DNA of 64,000 bases from Escherichia coli. GTDB taxonomy: Bacteria > Pseudomonadota > Gammaproteobacteria > Enterobacterales > Enterobacteriaceae. Position 1 is the first letter of the stretch. Every line of letters starts with the position of its first letter. Under the pieces are notes generated by a model that was given only the letters and a program-made list of their open reading frames with translations, did no database searches and was not told the DNA's origin. Location of the stretch: assembly GCF_024502345.1 (NCBI RefSeq), contig NZ_JALDNN010000001.1; one strand, given 5' to 3'. A program made the position numbers and the translations under genes. Shown one piece after another: positions 1 to 19,443 of this stretch.

Positions 1-161
1 ATTGCTATCGATGTTTTACCATATGTATTGAACGATATTCCTAAATTTGAAATAGATAATGAAATGGAAGCTCGCATTTGTGCCAGGATAGTGATGGAAC
101 GTTTTAAGCAAGATGCAAGTAGGCATATTAATAAGTATATATCACGTTATGAAAATGTTAG

Positions 162-1356
<1,195 letters not shown>

Positions 1357-1775
1357 TTAGTGCAGGGGTGGTGATAATGGCGATGATACCTGTTTGGTTG
1401 CGTGATGTTATATTACTTCATGTTAATGAAATAGCTCATGTAATTCCTCCATCAACTAACACAGAAGATGTAGGTGAAGTCATATTTTTAGCCGAGAAGT
1501 TAAGCTATCCGCTACTTCCTGATTTTTAGTGTGAGTTAAAAGTTGATAGATCAAAAGTGTGTTTTTTTAGATTATATACTTGGATCCAAGCAGTGCTAAG
1601 GTTATTTCCTTAGCTCACTCATAACTAAATAGATATTTAGCTAGGGGGGACGATCAAACGTTAGCTCCTAGCTCATAACGGACGAACTGAGATATTTGTG
1701 CCCTGTAGAAGAGCACATCGACAGATAAAATTTCGACTGATACGGGGTTCGCTAACTGATGCCAGACAGGGCCAC

Positions 1776-2105
1776 TCAGTTCTTTTTCCCGGCCAGCATA
1801 TCAATCATCATGGGATAAATCTTTTCGCACTTCATGCCCGGATTCTGTACTGCGAAACTCCACCCCTCGTCCATCGCCGCAGCAACCTCTGTTGTTGAGG
1901 CTATGGGCCAATCGCTCACGGTGTCGTAGACTTTACTGATAGCCTTGTTCTTATCCATGCCGGTGTGTTGCTGCTGGCACATTCTGACCATTACTTCTGC
2001 GGCCTGAGCAGGCTGGCTTGCCGGGTAAGCAGCCAGCGCCGGGGCGGATGTCGTTGTGATGAGCAGTGCGGTAATAATATGCTTCTTTATTGTGTTACCC
2101 TTCAT
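1776..2105 (-). CDS. small secreted protein of unknown function (N-terminal signal peptide)
   Basis: 109-aa ORF with hydrophobic N-terminus ending ...PALAA; start overlaps stop of upstream ORF (2102-2105), suggesting an operon. Confidence 0.55.
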   Translation of the reverse strand: MKGNTIKKHIITALLITTTSAPALAAYPASQPAQAAEVMVRMCQQQHTGMDKNKAISKVYDTVSDWPIASTTEVAAAMDEGWSFAVQNPGMKCEKIYPMMIDMLAGKKN

Positions 2106-2620
2106 TGAACCTGAATGCCCTGAACCGGGCTATTGTCCCATGTCATCGGTCGGTCTTCCGGAATTGCCGGGGCACTGTTAGTGGCCGGTTTATCAACAAC
2201 AGGTTTCGCGCTGGCGGGAAGGTCATCTGGTGAAATAACTCGGGTTATCACACCCATCTTCTCACCAACAGCGGAGTTCATCTGATCGCAGAGGGTTTTT
2301 ATCTGGAGCCGGATACCGCTCTGGTTTATTCCTTCGCTTTTGAATTGCTGCTCAAGAATAAAGCGGTCCTGAAGGGAATGGTAATAGTTAATATTGTCCT
2401 TCGTTAATATCATGATGTTGCCGGTATTATCCTGATAGCGATTGCTGCGGATAAGTTTATCCAGTGCGGTTAAAGCCTCATCGCCAGTGTAACCATACTG
2501 GTGGCAGGTATTCAGGGTGGCATAAGCCTCATACAGCCCCTGCAAATTTTCTGCGGGGAGTGTTTTTGCCCCGGCACAACCTGAAAATGCCAGAAGCAAC
2601 ATAGCAGCGGTTTTCCTCAT
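2102..2620 (-). CDS. putative lipoprotein of unknown function
   Basis: 172-aa ORF; N-terminus MRKTAAMLLLAFSGC resembles a signal peptide with lipobox cysteine. Confidence 0.55.
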   Translation of the reverse strand: MRKTAAMLLLAFSGCAGAKTLPAENLQGLYEAYATLNTCHQYGYTGDEALTALDKLIRSNRYQDNTGNIMILTKDNINYYHSLQDRFILEQQFKSEGINQSGIRLQIKTLCDQMNSAVGEKMGVITRVISPDDLPASAKPVVDKPATNSAPAIPEDRPMTWDNSPVQGIQVQ

Positions 2621-2672
2621 TTTAGGTAGTCTCCTTTCATTGACGTTTCATCATCCGTCATGCGCGTTACAG

Positions 2673-3200
2673 TTAACGGATGCGGATATTTCTGGTGATT
2701 TTTCCATGTGTCAACGGGCTGCGTTTTTCCACAAAGAAATACGCGACATTGAACGCGGATTTGCGATGGTTGCCCCGGCCCAGAGAAGGCCAGCTCCTGA
2801 AGGACTCAATTTGTTCTTCGGTATAGGGTGTGTCAGAAAAATCGAACAGTACAAGCAGGGCTTTGCCGTCATACTTCATCAGTTTCTTCACCTCCGTGCT
2901 GTTGACGGAGGCTGACAGCGCAGAACGGGCAGCTCCCGGCTTACGGACGGCGAACTCTACAGCCACATCGTCAATGACGAAATCAATGTAGCCATGTCCG
3001 GACAAACTGCCCGGTAGTTTTCCCCTAACCTCAGGTGAGAGGCTGTCAGCAAACCAGCCCAGTAGGTAGCAACGCACCAGCGGTAATAGCTCCCGCTCAT
3101 TGCATTCGTTAAGGCGCAGGGTTTTGACAAATGCTTTCCGGTAAAGGGAACTAAAAAGGTACTCAAAGCATTCCGTTACTTCAGTAATAGTGGTCGCCAC
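2673..3200 (-). CDS. hypothetical protein, 175 aa
   Basis: ORF follows the Ner-like gene after a 12-bp gap on the same strand; no recognised family. Confidence 0.5.
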   Translation of the reverse strand: MATTITEVTECFEYLFSSLYRKAFVKTLRLNECNERELLPLVRCYLLGWFADSLSPEVRGKLPGSLSGHGYIDFVIDDVAVEFAVRKPGAARSALSASVNSTEVKKLMKYDGKALLVLFDFSDTPYTEEQIESFRSWPSLGRGNHRKSAFNVAYFFVEKRSPLTHGKITRNIRIR

Positions 3201-3212
3201 TCTATGCTCCCT

Positions 3213-3491
3213 TCAGCTTTCCTTTTTGACAGACCTGCCTGCGTAGCGCTCAGGCCAGATAGTTTCGGGCGTGGTATCCAGTGCCTCAGCAATAATCTTT
3301 TCTGCCCGTGGATAGTGGCGCTCAAAAGCGTTACTCAGTGTCCTTGAGGCCAGCCCGTGATGCCGGGAGAGAGCAGACAGGGAAAGTCCCCGCTTGTGCA
3401 GGGCGGCGACAATATCAGCCCGGTGCCAGTTAACAGCACTTCCCTTACTTCGCTTTTTTTGCGAATCTGTTGAGTTACTCAATGTATTCAC
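3213..3491 (-). CDS. Ner/Nlp-family (phage Mu Ner-like) HTH DNA-binding regulator
   Basis: 92-aa protein; segment WHRADIVAALHKRGLSLSALSRHHGLASRTLSNAFERHYPRAEKIIAEAL...ETIWP resembles Ner/SfsB family. Confidence 0.7.
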   Translation of the reverse strand: MNTLSNSTDSQKKRSKGSAVNWHRADIVAALHKRGLSLSALSRHHGLASRTLSNAFERHYPRAEKIIAEALDTTPETIWPERYAGRSVKKES

Positions 3492-3603
3492 TCCGGGTTG
3501 TTAGTACTGGAGATATTAAAAGCGAACAAAGGGAAGTTATCAAGTTCCTTTTGTGGTTATTTGCGCTCATTTAACTAACGCTTTGATAAGAGGTGAAATT
3601 TTT

Positions 3604-3984
3604 ATGGGCAGTGAACAGATGACTGACCCCTGCGTTACCGGAATGACGGAGAGTGGGGGGTGGCTTACAGCAGAGCAGTTTGCCGGAATGGAAGGGATGC
3701 CGGGCACAGCGAAAGGGGCGCGACTACGTCTGGAAAAGCTCACTGCTCTGCACCCGGAAATCCGCCGCAAACGCACCAGTGGGAAGGGGTTTCTGTACCA
3801 TATCAGCGCGGCAGGGATGGCACTGAAAAGTGAGCGGGATGCGACAGATACCTCAGCAGACGAGCAGCTCAACCTCTGGATACAGCTGTTTCGCACAATG
3901 AAACCGGCCTCCAGGGATAAACTTTTGCAGCAGGCTCTGGCTCAGGTTGCGAGGGACCTGACTAAAGGAGACGTTAACCAGTAA
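3604..3984 (+). CDS. hypothetical protein, divergent from the Ner-like gene
   Basis: Track ORF 3553..3984; start moved to ATG 3604, which is preceded by AGAGGTG RBS. No recognised family. Confidence 0.45.
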   Translation: MGSEQMTDPCVTGMTESGGWLTAEQFAGMEGMPGTAKGARLRLEKLTALHPEIRRKRTSGKGFLYHISAAGMALKSERDATDTSADEQLNLWIQLFRTMKPASRDKLLQQALAQVARDLTKGDVNQ

Positions 3985-4067
3985 CAAGTGATAGATACTC
4001 TGGTTGCGCTGGAAGTGATAATAGGAATCATTTGCTTTAACAGTTTGATTTTGCTATAATTAATACA

Positions 4068-4691
4068 GTGGCAGTCATTGCGTACTCAGCCACTGTATTA
4101 ACCCATCCTGGCTTGTTCACAGCCATCACTTTTCCTGGAATAGCAACAATGACACTTCCCCGAGACGTTCATGCGTCCCGTCAGGGCCAGCATGACTACT
4201 TATGTGGCATCTACAGCTTGATTAACACCCTCAGTTACCTTTATGACGGCAGAGTACGGCGAGAAAAATTAATGTACCGCCTGCTTAGCAGCTATAAGCG
4301 ACGATGGGATTTATTTGATCTCCTGACGCTCGGTCTGGACGAGGAACAAATGGACCACCTGATTGGTGATGTTCTCCTGAAAGGGCATTACGCCCGGCAT
4401 TATCCCCTGAATTTTCATACCCCCTTCCGTTACCGCTCCCTGCGCAGCCGACAGATACTCAGCGACATCAGCGACTGGCTGGCGTTGCCGGAGAACCAGG
4501 CGCAGCGCGTGGTGATTCTGGGCACATCCTGGCACTGGTCTGTGGTAGTCCGTACCGATGCTACCCGGCTGTTCCTGTTTGACAGCTTGGGAATACGCAG
4601 CCAGCGCAGGGATACGTTCTCCGTACAGCCGGAGCTGAAGCGCCACACGCTGCTGCCGGACGCCATCTATTTCGTCGAACGTGAGTTCTGA
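4068..4691 (+). CDS. hypothetical protein with candidate Cys/His dyad (possible papain-fold or C39-like peptidase); start uncertain
   Basis: 207-aa ORF; motifs DYLCGIYSL and SWHWSVVV resemble cysteine and histidine segments of C39-type peptidases. Weak, by-eye call. Confidence 0.4.
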   Translation: MAVIAYSATVLTHPGLFTAITFPGIATMTLPRDVHASRQGQHDYLCGIYSLINTLSYLYDGRVRREKLMYRLLSSYKRRWDLFDLLTLGLDEEQMDHLIGDVLLKGHYARHYPLNFHTPFRYRSLRSRQILSDISDWLALPENQAQRVVILGTSWHWSVVVRTDATRLFLFDSLGIRSQRRDTFSVQPELKRHTLLPDAIYFVEREF

Positions 4692-4713
4692 CCCCTGCAG
4701 AAGGAGACTGACC

Positions 4714-5202
4714 ATGACTTTTACCGCCTGCGACCAGAGCGGTTTTTACCGGACCACCGGGCCGGTGTCCCGCGAGGATATTATCCGCTTTGCCCATACG
4801 CTGCTCTCCCGCCGGTTTCGCAATCGCCGAAAAATTACGTCCTCTAATGATGTTCACCAGTGGCTGGTGCTGAAGCTGGCAGAGGACACCCGGGAGAGCT
4901 TCGGAATGATACTGCTCTCGCAGCAGCACCATCTTCTGGGCTACCACATCCTGTTCACCGGGACGCTGAACCAGACCATGGTTTACCCCCGCGAAATTGT
5001 CGCTCTGGCGCTGACGCATCATGCAGCCGCAGTGATACTGGTCCATAACCACCCAAGCGGTGAGCCTGAGCCGAGCCAGGCCGATAAACTCATTACCCAA
5101 AAAATTACCGATGCGCTTTCACTCCTTGATATCCGCGTCGTGGACCACCTTATTGTGGGTGGTGACGATGCTTACTCCTTTGCAGAACACGGCCTGCTCT
5201 GA
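4714..5202 (+). CDS. RadC-like JAB/MPN-domain protein (YeeS/YfjY/YkfG family)
   Basis: C-terminal HNHPSG...D JAMM-like motif and ...DHLIVGG...SFAEHGLL tail typical of CP4-prophage RadC-like proteins. Start at ATG 4714, preceded by AAGGAG. Confidence 0.75.
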   Translation: MTFTACDQSGFYRTTGPVSREDIIRFAHTLLSRRFRNRRKITSSNDVHQWLVLKLAEDTRESFGMILLSQQHHLLGYHILFTGTLNQTMVYPREIVALALTHHAAAVILVHNHPSGEPEPSQADKLITQKITDALSLLDIRVVDHLIVGGDDAYSFAEHGLL

Positions 5203-5289
5203 GTGACCTGGTTTAATACACATTAACCACGGTAATCCACGTTCGCCTTATCCCTTCATTTTTAAACTGTAAATACTGAGGTTTTAACC

Positions 5290-5721
5290 ATGAACATCAA
5301 TGCCGTTATTCAGCCGGCAGGCTTTGTGCTGCCTGTCAGTCTGCAGCTGTTCGACATGCTGATGGTAGAAGCAGGCGAAAAAACCGCTAGTAAACATCGC
5401 ATTACCGCCGTTACGCTCAATTTCCGGGACCCGAACTACAGCGCGGAGCGGGGCGGCTATCACCCGGTGGAAATTCGGCTGGTTCACCAGGGGGATGAAT
5501 GGTGCCTGGACTACGCCACCGATTTTGGCTATGTCGGCAACGCTTACCCCGAGCTTGAGAAAATCATCGATATCAGTTGGTCGCAGGGCTACGTCTGGCA
5601 CTGCCGTACAGGGGATTTGTCCCCGTCTGAGGCGCGGGCGCTCTACACCCTGTGGGAGCGCAACTTCCTGAGCTATCACGCCAGTGGGGTCTACATCACC
5701 CGAGTGCTGTGGGAAAGCTGA
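5290..5721 (+). CDS. hypothetical protein in antitoxin position upstream of the CbtA-like toxin
   Basis: 143-aa ORF with GAGG RBS; no similarity I can recognise to CbeA/YeeU antitoxins, so function is inferred from position only. Confidence 0.45.
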   Translation: MNINAVIQPAGFVLPVSLQLFDMLMVEAGEKTASKHRITAVTLNFRDPNYSAERGGYHPVEIRLVHQGDEWCLDYATDFGYVGNAYPELEKIIDISWSQGYVWHCRTGDLSPSEARALYTLWERNFLSYHASGVYITRVLWES

Positions 5722-5864
5722 ACTACTGACCTGAGCTGCCGGGCGCACCGGTAAACATCCGTTCTCCCTTCTGGCGGGCGGGTTTCCATAAGCGCGGCTC
5801 GGGTTGCCGTTCATGTTCGCGCCCTCTTTTCAATACCATTCACATTACCCACGAGAATACTGTC

Positions 5865-6482
5865 ATGAAAAAACAACCTGTCTCACTGGCTCGGGAGACA
5901 TCGTGCTGCCTGTCGCCTGCTGATGTCTGGCGTACCCTGCTGACTCACCTGCTGGCACAGCACTATGGGCTTGCCCTCAACGATACGCCGTTTGGTGAGG
6001 AAGGCACCATTCAGGCGCATATTGACGCTGGTGTTACCATGATGGAAGCCCTGAATACCGTCGTTGAGAAGTATGATCTGGTACGTACAGATCGGGACAG
6101 TGTGGGCCTTCACCCTGGCTCCTCATTGATTACTGCTATTGATGTTCTCCGGGCGCGAAAAGCCACCGGGCTCCTGAAGCGGGGAGCATATCAGTTCGTG
6201 AGCCACATCACGCAGGGGCGCAGGCCCGCCCCGGACAGTGCAGTAACCGCCGGGCCCTCCGCGCCGTTACCATTGCTACCATCGGACACATTCACCCGAC
6301 AGGACGCGGTGTCCATTATGGCGGTGTATGACTGTGTGGCTATTGAGGATGACCAGCATACCCATTTCCGTCTGGCAATACGCGATGCTGAAGGTCAGCT
6401 TATCTGGCGGGCCTGGAACTTTGAGTCCGGAGCCGGGCAGGGGCTTAACCACTATCTGCAACGTTATGGTGTGAAAAAATGA
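5865..6482 (+). CDS. CbtA/YeeV-family type IV toxin homolog with ~80-aa C-terminal extension
   Basis: N-terminal ~125 aa (…VWRTLLTHLLAQHYGLALNDTPFGEEG...LVRTD...ILRARKATGLL...) resembles CbtA/YkfI/YpjF toxins; ORF continues to 205 aa. Confidence 0.65.
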   Translation: MKKQPVSLARETSCCLSPADVWRTLLTHLLAQHYGLALNDTPFGEEGTIQAHIDAGVTMMEALNTVVEKYDLVRTDRDSVGLHPGSSLITAIDVLRARKATGLLKRGAYQFVSHITQGRRPAPDSAVTAGPSAPLPLLPSDTFTRQDAVSIMAVYDCVAIEDDQHTHFRLAIRDAEGQLIWRAWNFESGAGQGLNHYLQRYGVKK

Positions 6483-6576
6483 CCACACAGGGCTGAATGG
6501 CATCCCCAGATGAATTGACTGCTTCCCCGGTCTGCATGGCCGGGATACTCCATTTTTAAGTATTGAGGATGATGTT

Positions 6577-7524
6577 ATGACCTCGAACCGCAAGGGCAGG
6601 CGTGCGGAAACTGTGCGCCAACAAAACGTCCCCACCATCAACCCGGCACAGCTTTGGCTGGCAGGTCTGACGCGCGCCGGGCGCAAGGGGATGCAAAGCC
6701 AGCTTCGGCGCTGTGCCGGTATCCTGCTTCCGGGCTCGGATACCGACAGCTACCCCTGGCAGATGCTGAACTACACGGGGATGATGCAGATCCGTGCGCA
6801 CATGCTGGATGCTGGCTATGCTGTCGCGACTGTCAACATGGCACTGTCGGCGCTGAAATCGGTTGCCTTTAGCGCGTTCAGTATGGGTCTGATGGATGCT
6901 GACACGCTTGCGCGCATACGCAACGTCAGGCGGGTCAGTGGTGACGGTTGTAGGCTGGGGCGTGCGCTGGCCCGCCATGAAATCCGGTCAATGCTGGCGG
7001 CGGCAGCGACGTTCTCCACTGTGCGCTGTCAGCGCGAACGGGCCATTTTGTTGCTTCTGTGTGGTGCCGGGCTGCGAGCGGGTGAGCTGGTTGCCCTGAA
7101 TGCGGAGGATATTGACGTTGCCGCAGGGATTGTCTGGGTCAGGGAGGGAAAAGGGCGCAAAAGTCGTGAAATTCACCTTGCCGCGAAGGTATGCACGCAG
7201 CTGCGCCGTTGGCTGAAGTGCCGTGGAGACCATGAAGGGCCGTTGTTCAGTCGTATCAGCCGGGCAGACCGGCCAGGGCCACACAGGCTTACCACGACTG
7301 GATTGACGGGGCTGTTGGCACAGCTACGCGAAGCCGCTGGCGTGGACTATTTCACCCCGCACGACCTCAGACGAACGTTCATCACACAGTTGCTGGAGCA
7401 GGGAACCGACCTCAACGTGGTACGCCAGCTTGCGGGGCATGCCGATATCGCCACAACCACCCGATATGACTACAGGGGCCGGGGTACGCAGGACAGAGCC
7501 TCCAGGGCTTTCTGTTGCTGGTAA
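6577..7524 (+). CDS. tyrosine-type site-specific recombinase (phage integrase family)
   Basis: 315-aa ORF with GAGGA RBS; C-terminal catalytic-domain signature HDLRRTF...LAGH...TTTRYDY (R-H-R-Y residues). Confidence 0.8.
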   Translation: MTSNRKGRRAETVRQQNVPTINPAQLWLAGLTRAGRKGMQSQLRRCAGILLPGSDTDSYPWQMLNYTGMMQIRAHMLDAGYAVATVNMALSALKSVAFSAFSMGLMDADTLARIRNVRRVSGDGCRLGRALARHEIRSMLAAAATFSTVRCQRERAILLLLCGAGLRAGELVALNAEDIDVAAGIVWVREGKGRKSREIHLAAKVCTQLRRWLKCRGDHEGPLFSRISRADRPGPHRLTTTGLTGLLAQLREAAGVDYFTPHDLRRTFITQLLEQGTDLNVVRQLAGHADIATTTRYDYRGRGTQDRASRAFCCW

Positions 7525-7823
7525 ATCTTCATGGGGTGGGGGATGGCCTTCGTCACCTGCTGATTAAATTCACCAGAGGGTCCCGGAGATATTTTTGATG
7601 CCCCAAAGGCACGTCCAGGGCGGGCTCAGTGCTATGGGGAGGCCGGGAAAGTACGACCAACTCACCACCCCTGCTGAATGACACTATCGTACTTCGCGGC
7701 GCGGAGAGTATAACTTGGTAGCTGAGTATTTCTCAGAGCGATTAAAGTAGTTGTCTGTATGCATGTAGCGTCGGGAAACCATGAAACTAAACTCTGAATT
7801 CATTTAGCTGAATTTGCAGGCAA

Positions 7824-8339
7824 CTACGCCGAAGGACTGTCTGCCCGCTCTGTGCCATCCAGCTTTTCCATTGTTTGGATTACCCAGCGAAAATCATTTA
7901 TTTTTTCAGTCGTTTCCTTGCTCCATGTTTTGCCCGTTACTGCTGTTTTTTTCTTCTCTATATCCACTGGCGATGGATATTTTTTACAAAATTTGAGCAT
8001 GATATCCTTCAGTTCACACTTTTCCTTCAACTCATGAAATTTCAGATAGAGTTCTTTCAGCAGTTTCGCTTCTTTCGATACAGGTTCATATAAGTAGTCG
8101 ATGTAGACCATGTTGATCATGTTATCCAGCGCCTGGCGATATACTTTTCCTCTTCCTTTCTTCAGCATTGAATAATCGTCGTCGTCAAGCCAGTTAGCGA
8201 TCTCCAGTAAACGCTCCTGGCTGTCTTCATGCAGGTTGATTTCAAACCGCTTTCCATATTTCTCCTCCAGCCCTTTGCGGCTTTTCTGCTTAGGCGTCCT
8301 GGGCTCCGCCTTAGCCATATTTTCTTCGTTTTTTCCCAT
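7824..8339 (-). CDS. hypothetical lysine/glutamate-rich protein in an AT-rich segment
   Basis: 171-aa ORF is the only long frame in the AT-rich 7.6-8.4 kb block; divergent from alpA; no recognised family. Confidence 0.45.
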   Translation of the reverse strand: MGKNEENMAKAEPRTPKQKSRKGLEEKYGKRFEINLHEDSQERLLEIANWLDDDDYSMLKKGRGKVYRQALDNMINMVYIDYLYEPVSKEAKLLKELYLKFHELKEKCELKDIMLKFCKKYPSPVDIEKKKTAVTGKTWSKETTEKINDFRWVIQTMEKLDGTERADSPSA

Positions 8340-8383
8340 AACTCATACCTCATTTCGGATTGCCACTATCAGAGATCTTTTTG

Positions 8384-8431
8384 GACCGTCATAAATCAAT
8401 GACGGTCATTCTACTCCAAAGAATGACCGTC
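8384..8431. promoter_or_regulatory. operator-like cluster of GACCGTCAT inverted/direct repeats between divergent genes
   Basis: GACCGTCAT (8384-8392) and its reverse complement ATGACGGTC (8399-8407) with 6-bp spacer; second inverted pair GACGGTCATTC (8401-8411) / GAATGACCGTC (8421-8431). Confidence 0.5.
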
Positions 8432-8545
8432 CAAAAGTGGGCCGCGAACACTTTGACCGGCGATCGCCATGAATAATCGGCCGAAATCAACTTTGTAAAG
8501 GGAGGGCTGGCCGCCCACTGGGGGTGGATAGATGGAGTTAAAAAT

Positions 8546-8752
8546 ATGAATAACTGCAGGCTGCTCGATATCAAGACTGTGCTCGGGATGTACCCAGTAT
8601 CACGCGCAACGTTATATCGCCAGATCAAGGCGGGGCTCTTTCCGGAGCCTGTACGCATCGGTGCCCGTCGGGTGGCATGGCGTATGGAGGATATCCACGC
8701 GCATATCAGTGGGCTGCCCAATGTTGAGCTGGCTGAAGCAGCTCGTCTGTAA
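8546..8752 (+). CDS. alpA: AlpA-family phage regulatory protein (excisionase-like HTH)
   Basis: 68-aa protein; LLDIKTVLGMYPVSRATLYRQIKAGLFPEPVRIGARRVAWRMEDI matches AlpA/Xis-like HTH pattern. Confidence 0.8.
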   Translation: MNNCRLLDIKTVLGMYPVSRATLYRQIKAGLFPEPVRIGARRVAWRMEDIHAHISGLPNVELAEAARL

Positions 8753-8853
8753 GCCTCATATAGCCCCTCGTACAGGGGTTCATTCACCATAGTCAGTAGC
8801 ACCTCTACGGATAGCTACTGACATGAATTGCCGTGAGGCTAAGGGAACTGGCG

Positions 8854-9948
8854 ATGATTACAGTTAATCGTGAGCGTGTGGACAATCTCTCCGGGTCTGT
8901 ATACCTGGGGCGAAATACTGACGGCAATAGGTGCTATGGGCGAATTGATAAACTCGCCTGGGTAATGGATTTGTCTGATGATAGCGAGAATGCAGTGCTG
9001 AGTGGGCGTCTGGCTGGGCTGAGAGCGGGAGGGAACTATATCGTGCGGTGCCGCCCTGCCGGTAAAGGGGAGTGTTCTGGCCTCTATCGATCCGTGGTGG
9101 AGATCCGTCTCAAGAGTAAATCCAGTCATCATCCGCTGATGCTGGTCATTTACTTTGCGCCGACGAATACGGTGCGGGGCTCAGTGCGTATGGAAATGAG
9201 TCCTCAGCACTATTCAGCAGAGCAGATCACAGGACTGTTCATCTGGCTTGGGCGTAAGGGACGTCTGGGGAAGTACCTGTACAGGGGCTTGCGCCAGGCA
9301 TGGGTGACGTCCATTCACTACGCACTGGATGTAAAGGGAATGAAACTTCATGACTACCTGATTGGTCTGGCAAAGGTTCATGATGGTGAGTTTTACGATT
9401 TGCATGGTGAACAGGAAGGGTTGCGTCTGGGCTCTGCCACGCTGGTAGCCTCTGTCTACGCCAAGGTCCATTCTCCGTCGTTGAGCGTGGAGGAGCGCTA
9501 TGCATCTCCAAAGATTACGCTGGAGGAGGCGCAATTCGAGCGTTTTTTACGTCTGGAACTCCGCCTGCAGCCGGGGCGCCAGCAATTGAAGCTAAGTCAG
9601 ATGACGAGTATGACCTGTCTGGTCAGCAGGCTGATGTTCTGGCGTCGGGAGGTACTCCAGGATCGTCGGCTGGATCCGGATTTTGCGCAGCGGCTGGCGT
9701 TGATGTCAGTACCACGTGCACGGGCCACGTTTGAGCCCGCGAGGAGTCTGAATGGCCACAGAGTCAGTGCAACCCCAAAGGCTGCCAGGAAACGCGTGGA
9801 CAAGGTCATGGCTAATTACCGGGCGGCATTGTTTGATTCTGCGGCTATCTGGGACCAGTTACCGGTCATTCTCGCAAAACTCGGGCTTCTCGCGCAGCCT
9901 CAGTACTGGATTTACCGTAATCGCGTGAAGTGGCGAGGGAGCCGCTGA
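8854..9948 (+). CDS. hypothetical island protein, 364 aa
   Basis: Track ORF begins at GTG 8833; ATG 8854 with upstream AAGGGA RBS preferred. No Walker or nuclease motif recognised. Confidence 0.5.
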   Translation: MITVNRERVDNLSGSVYLGRNTDGNRCYGRIDKLAWVMDLSDDSENAVLSGRLAGLRAGGNYIVRCRPAGKGECSGLYRSVVEIRLKSKSSHHPLMLVIYFAPTNTVRGSVRMEMSPQHYSAEQITGLFIWLGRKGRLGKYLYRGLRQAWVTSIHYALDVKGMKLHDYLIGLAKVHDGEFYDLHGEQEGLRLGSATLVASVYAKVHSPSLSVEERYASPKITLEEAQFERFLRLELRLQPGRQQLKLSQMTSMTCLVSRLMFWRREVLQDRRLDPDFAQRLALMSVPRARATFEPARSLNGHRVSATPKAARKRVDKVMANYRAALFDSAAIWDQLPVILAKLGLLAQPQYWIYRNRVKWRGSR

Positions 9949-10301
9949 AGATAAGCCAGAAGCATATTAGAGGGGGTGTGATGCCACCCTCGTCTGTGGC
10001 GACCAAAAAAATGGCTCCCCCTGATATGTTCTGTGAGGCACGCCTCATCACAGCTGAACAGGGGGTGTGGCTATAGTATGGTGTATACAGTACATACCAG
10101 TACCAGTCTGTTCCCCCTCTGGAACCCTCAATGAGATTGCGACAAGTCACAAGGCATTGTTTTGAGGAAAATTCAGATCCTGAGATAGCCCCCCAAAAAA
10201 TGCAGCCAGCCTGAGTCACATCACTCTGCGCAACCGTAATTCACTGTGCAAATGTACAGCCTGTAAACAGGCAGCATGTTCATAAAACGGAGCACAGTGA
10301 A

Positions 10302-11786
10302 ATGAAAGCCTACTGCACACAAAACAATATTCTCGTCACGGAAAGCACGATGAATGCTTTCAGGGAGGCCATTTTTAGCGTTCCATTCGACGACACATGT
10401 GACGGACGATGCAAGCCAACGTGGTATATGTCCATTGCTATTTTTTTGCAGCATCTTATTTGCAGCGCCACTGCGAGCCGTAACACGCGTAAGCGGTCGC
10501 AATTTAAGGGGAACCGACTATGGACCTGTTCAGTTCCGTTTCCTTATGCACTGGGAGAAAAAGTGGCTCCGGCAGTATTCAGACGCTCAAGAGAGCTACC
10601 GTTTGAAAGAGCGCTGGAAAAGCTGGAGGAAGTAGGGTTTATCAGAATCATTACACACGATGTTATACGTCACAAATGCCGGGAATTTGCGCTTTCTCGG
10701 CGGTTTCTCGACGTGCTGTTTCCCGGGGACAGAACTGCTTATCTCAACCTGGAAGATCGGTATGGCTATCTGACCGATGTTTACCGCAGACGTATGGGAC
10801 CGATGACGCTGGAAGAACGGCTTGCTCAGGCCATGTTACGAAAGTGCAAAGTCAGGCATTTAACGTCAACCCGGAATATACCTGATAAGGCCTTTCGTGA
10901 GCGGGTTGCAGCGGTGTATGACCGGCTTGAAGCGTTGCCGGTTAACATCGATGCGCTGAGGATGTACTGTAACGAGCAACCATCCACTGTGAACAGGGTT
11001 TATTATCACAATTTTATCAGCCATCTTTGTGAAGCCGGTGTTGAGGCTATCAGCCTGAGTCCGTTAATCGTCTCATATCGGCAGGTATATCGTACGGCTA
11101 GGCTGGGCGGGCGTTCGTTTGAGGTGGGGAAGGGGTTTCAGTATCTGCCAAAAGGCATGAAATGGGCATGTCTGGGGCAGGGCTATAACTACGATATAAA
11201 AAGCAGCCAGCTTGAGATACTGCGTCATGAGCTGCAGCGTATCGGATTATCCGATAAAAACCTGAAGCGGCTGGAAACGGATTACATTACAAAGAAACTG
11301 GGCGTCACCACGGATGAGGTAAAACAATTTAGGTTTGCTGCTGTCTTTAGCGCTGGTTCGGTCAGCCTTTCAGTGAAAAGTGGAGTAAGGAAGAGGCTGA
11401 ATAAAGTTCTCGGCGATAAGAGGGCAGAAAACGTGCTCAAACGCTGGAAAAAATTGATGCAACCGCTACGGGAAGATCTGAAGAGGCTGATCGAGGATTA
11501 TCTGGCGACGGGAACCACAAATCGATACGGGCTTTGCGTGAAAAATGCTGTGGGACAAAATTTTAACTGTAGCTGGAAGAATTTCAGCGCCAGACAGGCA
11601 TGGCAGCCAGCGCAGATGCACCGAAAGCTGCTTGCGCACATGTTACAGGGGCTGGAAAGTCAGGCTGTGTACGATTATGTTGCCAGCAATAAAGGCGTTT
11701 GTGCGCTAGAGCATGATGGGTTTGTTACATATGAAGAGATAACTGACTGGTCCCATCCATATCTTTTGATAGAGAAAAAGCATTGA
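10302..11786 (+). CDS. hypothetical island protein, 494 aa
   Basis: Long ORF directly upstream of hsdM; no helicase or nuclease motifs, so it is not HsdR. Confidence 0.5.
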   Translation: MKAYCTQNNILVTESTMNAFREAIFSVPFDDTCDGRCKPTWYMSIAIFLQHLICSATASRNTRKRSQFKGNRLWTCSVPFPYALGEKVAPAVFRRSRELPFERALEKLEEVGFIRIITHDVIRHKCREFALSRRFLDVLFPGDRTAYLNLEDRYGYLTDVYRRRMGPMTLEERLAQAMLRKCKVRHLTSTRNIPDKAFRERVAAVYDRLEALPVNIDALRMYCNEQPSTVNRVYYHNFISHLCEAGVEAISLSPLIVSYRQVYRTARLGGRSFEVGKGFQYLPKGMKWACLGQGYNYDIKSSQLEILRHELQRIGLSDKNLKRLETDYITKKLGVTTDEVKQFRFAAVFSAGSVSLSVKSGVRKRLNKVLGDKRAENVLKRWKKLMQPLREDLKRLIEDYLATGTTNRYGLCVKNAVGQNFNCSWKNFSARQAWQPAQMHRKLLAHMLQGLESQAVYDYVASNKGVCALEHDGFVTYEEITDWSHPYLLIEKKH

Positions 11787-11922
11787 AGCAAGTTATACAT
11801 TATCTAAATCTGAGGGCTCATAGATTGGGCTGTTGCTCGGTTAAATCATTGTATCTTTTCAGTATGTTATAGTGTATTCTCATTTAAAGTGAGCGTAACT
11901 ATATCCTGAGTCAATTGAAAAT

Positions 11923-13458
11923 ATGAAGCAAGAAACGATCGTTCAAAAAATTTGGAGTCTCTGCAACATACTAAGAGGTGATGGTATCACCTATTATCAG
12001 TATGTTTCTGAACTAAGTTATTTGCTTTTTCTGAAGATTGCTCAAGAAAATGGTTCAGAAAAGCTGATACCTCAAGGCTACCGCTGGGCTGATCTTGAAT
12101 CCCATCCAGAAGCAGGATTATTAGGGTTTTATCAAGAGATGCTCACTCACTTGGGTGCGCATGTTAAAAATGAAATCATAAGAGAGATTTACGCATTCCC
12201 TACAACCGTTTTCTCCCATTCTGAAAATTTAAAAGCTGTTGTAGATGGTATTTCGAAAATAGAGTGGCACCAAGTAGGAAAAGATGGGTTTGGCGACCTC
12301 TATAGTGGTTTAATTGATAAAAGTGCTCAAGATACGCGTTCGGGAGCCGGGCAGTATTTTACTCCACGCTCTTTAGTTAACACGATAGTGAGATTGATAA
12401 AACCGAGTCTTGGCGAATTGATTCAAGATCCTGCGTCAGGAAGTGGTGGCTTCTTAGTTTCTGCTGACAGCTATATTCGAGTCAAATATTCACGAAAAGA
12501 GTATCAATTGAACCCTCCTAAATATCAAGGAGTGGAAATAGAGAAAAATACTCGTCGAATTTGCTTAATGAATACCTTTTTACATGATTTAGATGCACAC
12601 ATTATCTATGGTGATGCACTGACTGATGACGTAGCAGGGTTGGATGAAGCCGATGTAATCTTAGCCAATCCCCCTTTTGGCAATAAGGCTGGGGGACAAC
12701 GTCCTTTACGTAACGATATTCCATTCCCCAATACAAATAAGCAATTAGCTTTTTTGCAGCATATTTATTTGAAGCTTAAAGCTGGCGGTCGAGCTGCTGT
12801 AGTGGTACCCGATAATGTACTATTCGAATCTGGGGTTGGTACCGATGTACGTCGTGACTTAATGAATAAGTGCAATCTTCATACTATCTTGCGACTGCCC
12901 ACTGGTATTTTTTACGCCCAAGGTGTTAAAACCAATGTTCTGTTCTTTACTAAAGGCTCTGACAAAGATAAATATCAACAAGATAGCTGCACTGAGAACG
13001 TCTGGGTATACGATCTACGTACCAATATGCCAAGTTTTGGTAAACGTACACCCTTCGGTAATTCAGATATTGGCTTTGCGGCAGAAGATTTCGGTACAGA
13101 TCAGCACCTCGGCGCGTTCGAAAAAGTGTTCGGAGATAATCCAGACGGCACCAGCAAGCGCACCGAAGGTGAATACAGCTTTGGTGCAACAGATATTGAA
13201 ATTGATACAGAAGCAGTAGAAGAAAACCTGAATGTTGATGAACAGCTAGCCCATTCTCGCTGGCGCTACTTCAGCCGTGAGTGGATAGCCAATAATAAAG
13301 GCGATTCGCTGGATATCTCATGGTTAAAAGACAAAAAGAGTGTCGATGCGGCTGGTTTATCCGAGCCAAACGTTCTCGCTCGCGAGGCAAAAGAAGAATT
13401 AGAAGCAGCATTGAGTGAGCTGGATAGTTTATTGATCGCATTGGAAGGGGCCGAATAA
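11923..13458 (+). CDS. hsdM: Type I restriction-modification N6-adenine DNA methyltransferase subunit HsdM
   Basis: 511 aa; SAM-binding and catalytic motifs (DPASGSGGFL; ANPPFG) typical of HsdM; AT-rich codon usage. Confidence 0.9.
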   Translation: MKQETIVQKIWSLCNILRGDGITYYQYVSELSYLLFLKIAQENGSEKLIPQGYRWADLESHPEAGLLGFYQEMLTHLGAHVKNEIIREIYAFPTTVFSHSENLKAVVDGISKIEWHQVGKDGFGDLYSGLIDKSAQDTRSGAGQYFTPRSLVNTIVRLIKPSLGELIQDPASGSGGFLVSADSYIRVKYSRKEYQLNPPKYQGVEIEKNTRRICLMNTFLHDLDAHIIYGDALTDDVAGLDEADVILANPPFGNKAGGQRPLRNDIPFPNTNKQLAFLQHIYLKLKAGGRAAVVVPDNVLFESGVGTDVRRDLMNKCNLHTILRLPTGIFYAQGVKTNVLFFTKGSDKDKYQQDSCTENVWVYDLRTNMPSFGKRTPFGNSDIGFAAEDFGTDQHLGAFEKVFGDNPDGTSKRTEGEYSFGATDIEIDTEAVEENLNVDEQLAHSRWRYFSREWIANNKGDSLDISWLKDKKSVDAAGLSEPNVLAREAKEELEAALSELDSLLIALEGAE

Positions 13459-15143
13459 TGATTGAGACTTCTTTACCATGGCTGAGAGTCCAGCTCGGTG
13501 ACGTAGTTCCCTATGGTAAAACCGAAAAATGCGAATTATCTGACGTTACAGGTAACACTTGGGTACTTGAGCTCGAAGATATAGAAAAAGATAGCTCGAA
13601 GATCATACAACGGCTAGATGCAACTGCACGACCATTTAAAAGCACGAAAAATAAATTCCGTAAAGGAGATGTCCTTTACGGGAAACTGCGACCTTACTTA
13701 AATAAAGTTGTCATTGCGGACAGTTCTGGCGTTTGTTCGACTGAAATCATGCCTCTAAATGCTGAGCCATTTATTGACAATAGGTACCTCTTTTACTGGT
13801 TGAAAACTGAAGTTTTTATTGATTTTGTAAATTCTGTAAGCTACGGCGTGAATATGCCTCGACTCGGAACTAAAGATGGATTAGCTGCTCCATTTATTGT
13901 AGCTCCGCTTGCTGAGCAAAAAGTTATTGCCGATAAACTTGATACCTTGTTGGTGCAGGTGGATGCCATTAAGGCTCGCCTCGAACGCATCCCAGAAATC
14001 CTAAAAACCTTCCGCCAATCGATCCTCACCGCCGCAGTTAGTGGGAAGTTGACGGAGGGATGGCGATTAAAGAATAAACTCAGTAATGTAGTTGTAAAAC
14101 AAAATATCAATCTACCAAAATTAACCCCAAATGAACACTACCTCGAACATGTTGAAGGATGGCAATGGGTAAGACTGGGTTCTGTTGTTAGTCTAATAAA
14201 CGGCGATAGAGGAAAAAACTACCCTAATAAAAATGAATATGTTAAGGATGGAATACCGTTCATAAATACAGGGCATATTAATTCAGATGGAACACTTTCT
14301 GATGAACGCATGAATTTTATTTCCAAGGATAAGTTTGACTCCTTAAGTGGGGGAAAGACGAAATCAACAGATCTAGTTTATTGCCTCCGAGGTGCAACTA
14401 TGGGAAAAACTGCACGTGTCCACTACAAAATAGGGGCAATAGCATCCTCTCTTGTAATTATCCGACCGAGTGATTACATAGACAGAGATTTCGCATATTA
14501 TTTTCTTATTAGCCCTCCGGCTAAAGATTTAATTAATGAATTTGATAACGGATCCGCTCAGCCAAATCTATCTGCAAAGAGTTTGTCTACATACCCTTTA
14601 CAACTCCCTTCGTTTAAAGAACAAATCGAAATCGTCAGTCGCGTCGAAGAAATGTTCAACTTTTCATCTCTTGCCGAAGCAAAAGCTAAAACTGCATTAG
14701 AGCGTGTCAATAAAATTACTCAATCAATCCTAGCCAAAGCTTTCCGAGGCGAACTCACTGCAGATTGGCGCGCCGCCAACCCGGATTTAATCAGCGAAGA
14801 GAAAAGTGCTGAAGCTTTGCTGGAAAAAATTAAGGCAGAACGTGAAGCCATCGAAAAACAACCTAAGCCAACACGTTCCGTTATAAAAAAAAATACAGGT
14901 GGCCGTATGAGTAAACAGATTATCAAAGTGGTTGAAGCGCTAAAACAAGCGGGAAAACCGCTTAGTGGCCAACAATTGTTAGCTGCAGCTGGTTACCCTA
15001 GTGATAGCAGTACTGAGCAACTGGAACAGTTCTTTCTGGATATACGTGACGCTCTTACCATAGAAGAGTCCATTGTAAAGCTTGAGCGCGGTGGCGACAG
15101 TCAAGATTGGTTCGCCTTGGCTAATAATAAAGCAAAGAACTAA
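13458..15143 (+). CDS. hsdS: Type I restriction-modification specificity subunit HsdS with ~120-aa C-terminal extension
   Basis: Start ATG overlaps hsdM stop (ATGA). Two variable target-recognition regions separated by conserved helical repeats (...PLAEQKVIADKLDTL... and ...LPSFKEQIEIVSRVEEM...ILAKAFRGEL), then an extra tail. Confidence 0.85.
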   Translation: MIETSLPWLRVQLGDVVPYGKTEKCELSDVTGNTWVLELEDIEKDSSKIIQRLDATARPFKSTKNKFRKGDVLYGKLRPYLNKVVIADSSGVCSTEIMPLNAEPFIDNRYLFYWLKTEVFIDFVNSVSYGVNMPRLGTKDGLAAPFIVAPLAEQKVIADKLDTLLVQVDAIKARLERIPEILKTFRQSILTAAVSGKLTEGWRLKNKLSNVVVKQNINLPKLTPNEHYLEHVEGWQWVRLGSVVSLINGDRGKNYPNKNEYVKDGIPFINTGHINSDGTLSDERMNFISKDKFDSLSGGKTKSTDLVYCLRGATMGKTARVHYKIGAIASSLVIIRPSDYIDRDFAYYFLISPPAKDLINEFDNGSAQPNLSAKSLSTYPLQLPSFKEQIEIVSRVEEMFNFSSLAEAKAKTALERVNKITQSILAKAFRGELTADWRAANPDLISEEKSAEALLEKIKAEREAIEKQPKPTRSVIKKNTGGRMSKQIIKVVEALKQAGKPLSGQQLLAAAGYPSDSSTEQLEQFFLDIRDALTIEESIVKLERGGDSQDWFALANNKAKN

Positions 15144-15152
15144 GGACAGCCC

Positions 15153-16757: not shown

Positions 16758-17599
16758 TGATTTACATCAAACGAGACGCCACGCTAATTCCTGCAAAGGT
16801 ACTTGCCGTTGCCCAACGCGCGCAAGATGCTCTGGAACAGCTTCCCGCTGAGCAGAGGAAAGGTTTCATCAAGAAAAAGTCTCATATATGGAGAGGCTTT
16901 TCTAAATACCTAGCCCAAATGTCTTATGGGAAGTGCTGGTATTCAGAAGCTAAAGATGCAGGTGCAAATTTCGATGTAGATCATTTCCGACCTAAGGCTG
17001 AAGCAAAGAGGACAGAAGATTTGGTCGATGCGGATGGTTATGCGTGGCTCGCATTTGATTGGGAAAACTTCAGGCTTTCTGCTCAGAATTGTAACCGTTT
17101 AAACACAGATGAATCAGGTAACACGGTAGGAAAAGGCAGTTGGTTCCCGCTGCTAGATGGTAGCCCTAAAGCCTGCTGGGATAATCGCTGTATTAACGAT
17201 GAAAAAGTCACTTTGCTAGACCCTGTAGTTAAAGCTGACCTCACCTATATAGACTACGACGACAGCGGTAGATTTACTTCAAGTAAGCTCTGCGTTGGTA
17301 AGGCAGCATTAAGGGTTAGGCAATCTGGCATTATTTATGGCCTCAATTTGGAGAAAATGCGTGAAGCACGATTTCAGGTTATGAGGGAGGCTAAAGAACT
17401 CCTTGAAACTATTCACCAATGTGCCGAAGACTTAGACCCTCTGGGCAATGAAGCCCCCATGAGAACTATTGAACGACAAATAGAACAACTCCAATCCAGA
17501 ACCCGGGCCGATGCACCATTTAGCCGTGCAGTAAGAACACAACTGATAAAACTCGGTGCAGAGGATTACTTAATTGATCGAAGTTTGGATGCAGCCTAG
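16757..17599 (+). CDS. HNH endonuclease-domain protein, Septu PtuB-like
   Basis: ATG at 16757 overlaps the upstream stop (TAATG); HNH-type motif CWYSE...DVDHFRPK...NFRLSAQNCNRLN. Confidence 0.7.
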   Translation: MIYIKRDATLIPAKVLAVAQRAQDALEQLPAEQRKGFIKKKSHIWRGFSKYLAQMSYGKCWYSEAKDAGANFDVDHFRPKAEAKRTEDLVDADGYAWLAFDWENFRLSAQNCNRLNTDESGNTVGKGSWFPLLDGSPKACWDNRCINDEKVTLLDPVVKADLTYIDYDDSGRFTSSKLCVGKAALRVRQSGIIYGLNLEKMREARFQVMREAKELLETIHQCAEDLDPLGNEAPMRTIERQIEQLQSRTRADAPFSRAVRTQLIKLGAEDYLIDRSLDAA

Positions 17600-17770
17600 T
17601 TGTTTATCTTTCTGATAATGGGGTTGTCCGTTAGCCAACCTGATATATTGCTTAAAGGGCTTGCCCGATGAGTGAGCCTTTGACGGGGCTTGATATGAAT
17701 TTGCGTAGAAGTTTTGGTATACTGTTTAAACGATGTCTTTCAGCCCAGATTCAACTTCTTAGGAGTGATT

Positions 17771-19407: not shown

Positions 19408-19410
19408 TAT

Positions 19411-19434
19411 GCCGGACAGTCAGATCTGTCCGGC
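19411..19434. terminator. hairpin between convergent ygbA and fhlA (candidate bidirectional terminator)
   Basis: GCCGGACAG-tcagat-CTGTCCGGC perfect stem-loop between two stop codons. Confidence 0.5.
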
Positions 19435-19443
19435 AATTTGCAG

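Follow-up and report, generated by a model that had tools for sequence, protein, structure and literature searches.

Which protein reads the short repeats that precede alpA in an Escherichia coli defence island? The window, i.e., the whole stretch of 64,000 nucleotides that was analyzed, carries this island of ~20 kb inserted between mutS and ygbA. A P4-type integrase adjoins mutS and, together with flanking direct repeats of ~80 bp, marks the chromosomal ends of the island, while module junctions were located by blastn at 7700 and 17598. The first-pass annotation of this DNA described a small recombinase gene and alpA as flanking a compact set of half-sites in inverted and direct orientation at 8384-8431, and proposed it as a candidate operator or recombination site for the module. 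The recombinase is not a neighbor of the repeats, since a gene for a 171-aa protein intervenes (Table 1).

Table 1. Features of the island and their positions in the window.
Feature	Position	Strand	Sequence	Remarks
Small tyrosine recombinase, 315 aa	6577-7524	+		Pfam Phage_integrase (PF00589), 1.3e-32, residues 131-297
Conserved block of ~178 bp, 3' side of the recombinase gene	7525-7700			Ends where the regulator modules diverge (blastn breakpoint 7700)
171-aa protein gene	7824-8339	-		Predicted sequence-specific DNA-binding regulator, putative repressor; uncharacterised family
O1, predicted operator site	8382-8392		TGGACCGTCAT	2 mismatches vs ATGACnGTCAT
O2, predicted operator site	8399-8409		ATGACGGTCAT	Perfect palindrome
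O3, predicted operator site	8423-8433		ATGACCGTCCA	2 mismatches vs ATGACnGTCAT
O4, decayed, alpA-proximal	8453-8463		TTGACCGGCGA	4 mismatches; intact counterpart in the Citrobacter homologue (alignment)
TTGTAAA element, alpA upstream region	8493-8499	+		TnnTAAA invariant in 11/11 island variants, with any regulator class
alpA, 68 aa, first gene of the rightward operon	8546-8752	+		Pfam Phage_AlpA (PF05930), 36.7 bits vs cut-off 21
371-aa protein, possible Rep_trans-like replication initiator	8833-9948	+		RefSeq start 8854, 364 aa
Conserved 494-aa protein, last core gene before the cargo	10302-11786	+		PHROG 30690, 2.4e-29
Right-hand imperfect direct repeat, ~80 bp, attR-like	18750-18830			Left copy after mutS, outside the window

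The gap between the 171-aa gene and alpA spans 206 bp and contains the array. Direct reading of the sequence gives three copies of the palindrome wATGAC-n-GTCATw within 8382-8433, followed by the decayed fourth one. Specifically, the plus strand reads GACCGTCAT at 8384-8392, the exact complement ATGACGGTC lies at 8399-8407, and GACCGTC recurs in direct orientation at 8425-8431. A repeat search returned the inverted repeats I7 (9/9, 6-nt gap), I3 (12/12, 7-nt gap) and I1 (14 nt, 93%) and the direct repeat D2, the larger 14-nt inverted repeat being made up of O1 and O3 with O2 enclosed. The sites are real and non-random: ATGACSGTC occurs four times in the 64-kb window against 0.65 expected, all four within 48 bp (8384-8431), the count was matched in 0/100 shuffles, and further clusters of the motif are absent from the rest of the 64 kb. 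The half-site cluster of the first-pass annotation is therefore borne out. As O2 is the sole perfect site and the alpA-proximal O4 is decayed, the array of the window may be partly degenerate. A consensus scan of the intergenic region detected no sigma-70 promoter, so that an overlap of sites and promoter is an assumption, and -10/-35 elements sought by eye were unconvincing, for which reason we give no promoter coordinates. RNAalifold did not find a consensus structure in the alpA leaders, the sequences being too diverged, and no Rfam family was matched in positions 1-20000 of the window.

Comparison with related islands showed that the repeats are conserved. Two to six copies of the motif occupy the same place in islands of Citrobacter, Salmonella, Hafnia, Lelliottia, one further enterobacterium and Gilliamella, and the start-to-start spacings (30, 29, 23, 34-35, and 29 bp) are common to loci L008, L027, and L047, while the surrounding DNA has diverged. 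The alpA-proximal site, decayed in the window, is intact in the homologues and always precedes the ATG of alpA by 80-91 bp. In total, the 11-mer was found in the same intergenic region of eight independent loci and essentially nowhere else in those loci, with regulators ranging from 77% down to ~22% identity. Among 37 pooled sites the GAC/GTC core is invariant, the AT/AT ends are near-invariant and the flanks are free. Additionally, an unbiased scan for the motif across 100,044 species genomes returned 102 stretches, of which four were relevant; in each of these four additional loci the sites stand next to a 171-aa-family gene or a look-alike. Most of the other stretches inspected were coding repeats (e.g., a His-rich protein of Photobacterium), genome-specific repeats or chance matches. 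The first-pass annotation would have given up its reading had the repeats been neither conserved in homologous elements nor bound by either protein; they are conserved, and the operator reading is supported. The number, position and spacing of the sites are kept across genera and the sites co-occur only with the 171-aa gene family.

In the comparison across loci, the motif goes along with the presence of this gene family and of no other gene. Where a different regulator gene occupies that position, other odd palindromes appear instead: L112 combines another regulator with three CGTGATnATCACG sites in place of ATGACnGTCAT, while TGTCGGnCCGACA is common to L002 and L114, the regulators of which are 69% identical. 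The retention of 11-mers amid diverged DNA argues for a function and says less about the identity of the binder, and since regulator gene and sites are adjacent and coinherited, linkage alone accounts for part of the co-occurrence. Nevertheless, because the motif is kept beside the 171-aa gene from E. coli to Gilliamella, the repeats are, on sequence grounds, most likely the operator through which the 171-aa protein, rather than AlpA or the recombinase, controls alpA and the replication genes. The gene is divergent from this xis/rep-like operon, and gene order together with covariation assigns the sites in the shared intergenic region to its product, which we infer to bind them. We give a probability of roughly 60% to an autoregulated repressor-operator switch, in which the 171-aa protein would gate the operon of alpA, the Rep-like 371-aa gene and the 494-aa gene. 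The protein would recognize wATGAC-n-GTCATw, probably as one dimer per site, and occupation of three to six sites across the shared control region would presumably repress both its own promoter and that of the rightward operon. The excision-replication module would stay silent until the repressor is inactivated and, by analogy, a phage-encoded anti-repressor that targets the helical C-terminal domain could supply the inducing signal.

Concerning the 171-aa protein itself, it had no match in Pfam, NCBIfam, PHROG or PADLOC, and its family is rare (nine clusters in one search and 26 representatives among 1.84 billion proteins in another). The literature on mutS/ygbA/AlpA islands and DUF2787 yielded no description of it. 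The regulator of L112 is a remote homologue (near relative P0069 at E = 6e-6 among the 1.84 billion proteins; hhalign 99.6%), which suggests that the 171-aa proteins and the L112-type regulators form one family with several operator specificities. In hhalign, the family profile matched the regulators of L002 and L114 weakly (E = 7e-4 and 1.6e-3) and the Gilliamella protein not significantly. Ribbon-helix-helix (RHH) repressors such as MetJ (met-boxes), omega, CopG and Arc/Mnt bind arrays of short symmetric boxes. Our locus resembles them in its short symmetric sites with half-sites one base apart, in tandem arrays of two to six upstream of the regulator's own gene, and in the N-terminal sequence pattern of the protein, i.e., a basic tail, an alternating hydrophobic strand and a helix. 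Unlike these repressors, the 171-aa protein is much larger, has a helical C-terminal domain that is well folded in the model, and shows neither an RHH model match (Pfam, NCBIfam, and PDB profile searches) nor a predicted ribbon. Permissive Pfam searches (E up to 1) on the 26 family members gave only noise and no RHH family, and sequence profiles of the 171-aa, 371-aa, and 494-aa families against the PDB gave nothing meaningful. The monomer model leaves residues 31-39 without structure (pLDDT < 50) and places helices at 41-52 and 64-83, whereas a linked-dimer model has pLDDT < 50 over the whole N-terminus and did not produce the ribbon.

The 171-aa protein might also bind the sites in another capacity, either as an activator or anti-silencer or as a centromere-binding autoregulator of the ParG/omega type, and not as a simple repressor of alpA. 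Type Ib partition sites typically consist of numerous short repeats to which small dimeric proteins bind, a layout that the present array recalls. However, no ParA-type ATPase gene adjoins the 171-aa gene in any locus examined, and the latter is monocistronic and convergent on the recombinase or RadC gene, so we consider this role unlikely.

A different binder would be AlpA, acting as an autoactivator in the manner of E. coli PICIs or as a DNA-bending excisionase. AlpA-family proteins bind DNA, the AlpA of EcCICFT073 activates its own promoter (PMC6092414), and the sites do lie upstream of alpA, the product of which is annotated by PHROG as "excisionase and transcriptional regulator." The motif and the identity of AlpA nevertheless do not go together. 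The motif is kept although AlpA identity falls to only ~30-40%: L047, a locus with a 171-aa-family gene and six ATGACnGTCAT sites, has an AlpA that shares 28-39% identity with those of the remaining motif-bearing loci and 74% with the AlpA of L112, a locus with the other palindrome. Conversely, L111 and L112 have AlpAs of 77% identity, and CGTGATnATCACG is found in L112 only. AlpA, one of the two binders put forward earlier, is thus an improbable reader of the repeats.

The array could alternatively represent the replication origin, or iterons, of the excised island, with the Rep-like 371-aa protein or the 494-aa protein as its binder. Multiple short repeats do stand beside a putative replication module, and AT-rich stretches border the arrays of L006 and L090. 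There is also a Rep_trans signal, a weak one, given by the L006 orthologue only (E = 0.002, below the Pfam cut-off), and one source labels a 371-aa homologue "Replication initiation prot...". No plasmid homologue of the 371-aa protein was found, and neither it nor the 494-aa protein contains a primase or helicase domain by Pfam, NCBIfam or PHROG. The distribution of the motif is not that of the Rep-like protein: the protein of the window shares 62% identity with that of L111, a locus lacking the motif, and only 25% with that of L031, which has it. Additionally, the repeats are perfect palindromes that occupy a divergent promoter gap ahead of the rep gene and not within or after it. We regard an origin as quite improbable.

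As for the recombination site, the arrangement GACCGTCAT-aaatca-ATGACGGTC, with 9-bp arms and a 6-bp spacer, has the geometry of Xer/Cre targets (dif/lox-like) and could be a core or accessory site of the 315-aa recombinase. A dif-like target (two arms of ~11 bp, 6-8-bp spacer) is not conserved, as the 9-6-9 layout of the window (8384-8407) is not kept in homologues: the 6-bp gap is limited to the lineage of the window and L003, and the sites elsewhere are 12-24 bp apart. The motif occurs without a recombinase gene in L047 and L090 and is absent from L002, which has a recombinase 88% identical to that of the window, a different regulator and TGTCGGnCCGACA instead. No second copy exists elsewhere in the island or at its ends, and the module junctions lie away from the array. 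The recombinase is hence not supported as the binder, and a recombination site at this position is very improbable. A second target of the enzyme was also sought, and the recombinase flanks and cargo borders share only 10-11-bp matches, roughly at chance level (GAGAGTATAAC at 7704/18594 and GTATAACTTG at 7708/11798). That the repeats are a chance cluster of palindromes or an intrinsic terminator hairpin is hardly credible, although a scan for terminators picked out 8431-8401 on the minus strand (a 12-bp stem and then ATTGATTTAT), because no shuffle reached the observed count, the sites are conserved across genera, the spacing in homologues allows no equivalent hairpin, the T-run is poor and the array lies upstream, not downstream, of both genes.

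The 315-aa recombinase is nonetheless a regular part of these islands. Judged from its sequence it is catalytically complete, as R167, H262, R265, H288, and Y297 are legible in the GLRAGE, HDLRRT, AGH, and TRY motifs, which confirms the catalytic tyrosine region noted at its end; this set places the protein in the tyrosine-recombinase superfamily only. The first-pass annotation had called it XerC/D-sized and not a P4-type integrase. It is indeed small and not of the P4/SXT type, which is defined by an Arm-DNA-bind_3 domain and a length of ~390-430 aa: Pfam finds no such N-terminal arm-binding domain in it, whereas the separate integrases of 426/427 and 393 aa in L001, L003, and L006 have one. 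An identity as XerC (TIGR02224, 123.7 bits vs a cut-off of 335) or XerD (TIGR02225, 101.3 bits vs 329.6) was rejected with scores far below the cut-offs, as was XerA, the model of which also scored far under its cut-off. The recombinase gene holds the same position after RadC in L002, L003, L006, L008, L027, L031, and L111-L114; it is a conserved core gene of the island family, an internal one whose presence is not coupled to the operator motif. Both this enzyme and AlpA appear to belong to the same island core without reading the sites. The conserved block behind the recombinase gene holds an inverted repeat, AAAGTACGA (7648-7656) and TCGTACTT (7687-7694), the arms of which show one compensatory change in an alignment of four variants, with possible structures on either strand.

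Among known systems, the master-repressor switch of SaPIs and PICIs has a leftward regulator gene and rightward xis-like and rep-like genes (PMC6092414). As with Stl/Rpr of SaPIs and Gram-positive PICIs, the regulator gene here is divergent from an operon of a small excision/regulatory gene followed by replication genes, there is an integrase-type gene on the side of the repressor, and the regulator probably binds the shared intergenic region. Unlike Stl, the 171-aa protein comes from a Gram-negative host and has no sequence or detectable fold similarity to it; AlpA heads the rightward operon, no packaging genes were seen, and derepression by a phage would here be pure analogy. EcCICFT073-type PICIs and CP4-57 are likewise enterobacterial integrative islands in which an AlpA-family gene heads the excision/replication genes. 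There, AlpA serves as an activator, whereas here a dedicated divergent regulator and a predicted operator array stand directly upstream of alpA, and the 371-aa and 494-aa genes are not Pri-Rep homologues by Pfam, in contrast to the EcCICFT073 type. Gram-negative PICIs are recognized by Pri-Rep and packaging-redirection genes within ~10-15 kb; in this island of ~20 kb, no primase or helicase domain was found in the 371-aa and 494-aa proteins and no terminase or capsid gene is annotated, and it was not classed as one.

Gammaproteobacterial pipolins, as presented in the passages retrieved from PMC11551731, are also integrative defence islands with a large recombinase near att and a smaller internal one, an excisionase-like gene after the latter, a DUF2787 gene, orphan core genes and exchangeable defence cargo. 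By the definition given there, our island shares the SXT-type integrase near att, the internal recombinase followed by an excisionase, and DUF2787. A further point of likeness is the WYL/BrxR gene of one related locus. A pipolin identity was rejected, the hallmark piPolB being absent: the tested core ORFs have no polymerase B domain, none is annotated in L001, L002, and L114, and, unlike in pipolins, the 371-aa and 494-aa proteins occupy the piPolB position. Those passages mention piPolB-less pipolin-like islands in passing and do not mention a regulator or operator. A likeness by gene content also exists with the Pseudomonas tmRNA defence islands transduced by jumbo phages (bioRxiv 10.1101/2024.08.29.610337), which have a tyrosine integrase, AlpA beside an inovirus Gp2-like (Rep-type) gene, RadC, an HTH protein, defence cargo and no transfer genes. 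They differ in genus, integration site and gene order, and no regulator or operator is described there. The tie to jumbo phages recurs here in the 494-aa protein, which has no sequence match in the PDB and whose only non-island homologues (~26% identical) are in jumbo phages of Erwinia, Dickeya, and Yersinia.

On a wider scale, it is a tentative possibility that the 171-aa family and its remote relatives are the missing master repressors of a widespread class of piPolB-less PICI-like or pipolin-like defence islands of enterobacteria. Each specificity class (ATGACnGTCAT, CGTGATnATCACG, TGTCGGnCCGACA) would then define an "immunity group," and the helical C-terminal domain would sense a phage anti-repressor, possibly from jumbo phages given the distribution of the 494-aa homologues, so that infection would switch on alpA, excision and island replication. 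A defined regulator-operator pair would offer a direct experimental handle of one protein and an 11-bp site, with three or more specificities already swapped in nature and a constant arrangement of several sites, and could become a marker to find and classify such islands. Should the 171-aa protein do no more than autoregulate in an ordinary way within a decaying island, the outcome would be that a new DNA-binding family has received a routine annotation. Defence islands of this build move between Enterobacterales, and their cargo includes Septu, type I methylase/specificity, RADAR, DarTG, retron-type RT, and GmrSD. In the island of the window, the annotation of the remaining genes reads defence, TA or hypothetical and includes neither a terminase nor a capsid gene.

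The repeats between the 171-aa gene and alpA, which the first-pass annotation had placed at 8384-8431 as a candidate operator or recombination site, with AlpA or the recombinase as suggested binders, are found there both in the sequence and by a repeat search, and the gene calls around them were also correct. Read as whole sites, they form three copies of the 11-bp palindrome ATGAC-n-GTCAT, and the outer halves of the two outer copies (1 and 3) are degenerate in mirror-image fashion. The 9-mer ATGACSGTC occurs four times in the 64 kb, always inside the cluster (0.65 expected; 0/100 shuffles reach four). The cluster is real, non-random and conserved. Homologue contigs were fetched in which the 171-aa protein is 78% (Citrobacter), 47% and 46% (Salmonella) identical; all three keep the gene order of the window, and the equivalent gap holds four, 5-6 and six copies of ATGACnGTCAT, respectively, with no further cluster outside the gap in the 16 kb scanned at these loci. 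One genome per species (100,044 species) was also scanned for two perfect sites 10-36 bp apart. The inspected matches were mostly coding repeats, genome-specific repeats or chance; in the enterobacterial ones (Hafnia, Lelliottia, strain LSJC7) the sites adjoin a gene of the 171-aa family, and in Gilliamella a 181-aa look-alike in the equivalent position. Loss of the repeats from homologous elements, which by the annotation would have counted against its reading, is thus not what is seen. The 37 pooled sites give the consensus wATGACnGTCATw, with GAC and GTC invariant and the flanks unconstrained. Start-to-start spacings of 30, 29, 23, 34-35 and 29 bp are common to the Salmonella L008, Hafnia L027 and LSJC7 (L047) loci; six-site arrays extend from 16 bp upstream of the regulator start codon to ~85 bp upstream of alpA, and the alpA-proximal site lies 80-91 bp from the alpA start codon in every locus but Gilliamella. 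On a 736-bp gammaproteobacterial MAG contig (L012; too short to include neighbouring genes), three ATGRCGGTCAT sites with TTTTGT and A-runs after each look like another operator array of the same type.

Positions of sites, repeats and flanking features in the window
Feature	Position	Remark
Palindrome copy 1	8382-8392	imperfect
Palindrome copy 2 (middle)	8399-8409	only perfect copy
Palindrome copy 3	8423-8433	imperfect
Palindrome copy 4	8453-8463	decayed
Conserved block, ~178 bp	7525-7700	3' side of recombinase gene
Imperfect direct repeat, ~80 bp	18750 onward	copy just before ygbA; the other copy follows mutS
IS5-family transposase gene	194-1210	at the left of the window

Pairwise identities of four neighbouring proteins and the presence of the motif were compared across twelve loci, and among these proteins the presence of the 171-aa family is the sole feature matching the motif distribution. 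The recombination-site alternative does not hold, since the recombinase is missing in L047 and Gilliamella, yet the motif is kept in both; the recombinase is also 88% identical in EC476 (L002), where the motif is missing. AlpA as the reader of the sites is not borne out either, as the motif tracks neither protein: the AlpA of L047 shares 74% identity with that of Salmonella L112 and only 28-39% with those of the other motif-bearing loci, while L047 has six ATGACnGTCAT sites and L112 three CGTGATnATCACG sites. The 371-aa Rep-like protein of the window shares 62% identity with that of Yersinia L111 (no motif) and 25% with that of Lelliottia L031 (motif present). The operator idea itself holds, with sites that are conserved and co-occur with the 171-aa family, and the cluster is best read as an operator array belonging to an island regulator that had not been characterised before. 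This co-occurrence is good indirect evidence, at the level of sequence, for binding of ATGACnGTCAT by the 171-aa protein, with the caveat that the gene lies beside the sites and is inherited together with them. A second pairing of regulator and palindrome behaves alike: EC476 and Ecol_224 have regulators that share 69% identity, both face TGTCGGnCCGACA palindromes and are unrelated to the 171-aa protein by BLAST; the EC476-type regulator is a borderline homologue of the 171-aa family and the L112 regulator a remote one. Since the three operator types are all odd-length palindromes with half-sites one base apart, they suggest a shared binding mode with diverged specificity. This kind of system is already familiar; new here are the regulator family with its three classes of operator, and the fixed six-site architecture.

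Pfam, NCBIfam, PHROGs and PADLOC assign the 171-aa protein to no family, and no match was found in fold or sequence searches. Its family is rare, with nine clusters at 90% identity and 26 representatives at E below 0.001 among 1.84 billion proteins. By eye, all regulator variants have a basic N-terminal tail that leads through a short stretch of alternating hydrophobic residues into a helix (KRFEINLHEDSQERLLEIA; GKIVPIHMLEETKTRLEMIA; TQVKVYLDETTLELLALL), and then a helical C-terminal region in which a tryptophan is conserved. Ribbon-helix-helix repressors such as MetJ and omega have a similar N-terminal pattern and very close half-sites in arrays. The 171-aa family recalls them in both respects, a likeness not confirmed by structure models or searches; the monomer model is confident just for residues ~70-160, and the linked-dimer model gave no usable structure.

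The sites occupy the intergenic stretch that two divergent genes share. In the simplest model, dimers of the 171-aa protein would occupy them cooperatively and shut both divergent promoters, resulting in autoregulation and in silencing of the alpA/371-aa/494-aa operon. We infer repression and not activation; a promoter scan of the intergenic region located no promoters. In PICIs of E. coli, AlpA acts as an activator that sets off excision and replication once expressed; in those of Gram-positive hosts the role falls to a divergent master repressor (Stl/Rpr), lifted by helper-phage proteins (PMC6092414); the window island combines the AlpA of the former layout with the divergent regulator of the latter. 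Eleven variants all keep a TnnTAAA pattern 45-50 bp ahead of the alpA start codon (window 8493-8545). When this region was compared with the leaders of the homologous loci L002, L006, L031, L047, L111 and L113, a hairpin pairing the Shine-Dalgarno sequence appeared in 6/8 variants (z -1.7 to -4.1) with differing sequences; the window's own leader has no such hairpin (z -0.3).

Five complete E. coli genomes, ET665 and MSB1_9D among them, carry window 6500-8900 on their chromosomes at 100% identity. In ET665 this region sits within a ~20-kb island inserted between mutS and ygbA. From the mutS side, this island holds a P4-type 427-aa integrase and a leftward block with an HTH gene last, then a rightward block of two hypothetical genes, RadC, DUF2787, CbtA/DUF905 remnants and the 315-aa recombinase, then the leftward 171-aa gene, the rightward alpA, 371-aa and 494-aa genes and, distally, defence cargo and a Fic gene (PDC-S04). 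The ~80-bp direct repeat is the boundary of the whole island. At the left of the window the source strain differs from ET665, whose island does not align with the first 1670 bases. Repeats of the TGTAGGTTAAA type lie near both island ends (window 18655-18665; homologous locus L001 12600-12700), form a palindrome where they adjoin the P4-type integrase gene and are candidate arm-type sites of this integrase. Just upstream of RadC, a ~190-207-aa protein with a GIYSLxN motif (window 4068-4691; L090 1830-2390) is kept from E. coli to Gilliamella, without family assignment. The CbtA toxin domain and DUF905 are fused in a single ORF (5865-6482), which RefSeq annotates as a truncated pseudogene plus a DUF905 gene of its own. 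The window island lacks the CbeA/YeeU antitoxin gene that the Citrobacter and EC476 islands have.

The window cargo (11923-18555; PADLOC) comprises a type I methylase with its specificity subunit but without a restriction subunit, then Septu PtuA/PtuB and a Fic protein (PDC-S04), ahead of which lies a small conserved ORF (17772-17942). Sister islands have RADAR, DarTG, a reverse transcriptase, GmrSD or a complete type I R-M system as cargo instead. Up to 7700 the DNA is 88% identical to that of EC476, and from 17598 identity resumes at 93%; between these points, regulator, 371-aa position and cargo are all replaced, AlpA is just 41-46% identical and EC476 retains a 38-bp remnant of the 494-aa gene 3' end. 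From its alignment pattern, the difference looks like allelic replacement between conserved flanks and not site-specific cassette capture.

The 315-aa recombinase, annotated as XerC/D-sized and not P4-type, is indeed small and lacks the arm-binding domain of P4-type integrases, but its scores fall well short of the equivalog thresholds for XerC and XerD. Its full catalytic set is present. The gene belongs to the conserved core; it always comes right after RadC and converges on the regulator gene, which it overlaps by ~25 bp in several genera. Since a separate P4-type integrase and direct repeats mark the island ends (another lineage has a large integrase at the opposite end, in reversed orientation), the small recombinase is probably not the chromosomal integrase; it could serve in resolution of replicated circles or as a second integration route. 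PMC11551731 describes gammaproteobacterial pipolins as pairing a large integrase at the att site with a smaller internal recombinase, after which comes an excisionase, with DUF2787 close by, and mentions piPolB-less pipolin-like islands; compared with that description, the window island family has the same two-recombinase pairing without the hallmark polymerase. The conserved block beside the recombinase gene is kept in four island variants, one with a recombinase gene just 75% identical, ends exactly where the regulator modules diverge, and is missing in lineages where recombinase and regulator genes abut. Pairing of its inverted repeat (7648-7656/7687-7694) is kept via a double change in Ecol_224, and structures may form on both strands.

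The 371-aa family is widespread in Enterobacterales islands and has no Pfam domain; no homologues were found among 72,556 plasmids, and a sub-threshold Rep_trans match of one orthologue, together with one source name, hints weakly at a role in replication. Outside islands, homologues of the 494-aa protein are confined to hypothetical proteins from jumbo phages of Erwinia, Dickeya and Yersinia (~26% identity; PHROG 30690), and no PDB homologue was found. By eye, its DIKSSQLEILR and EHDGF segments may resemble motifs A and C of family-A polymerases.
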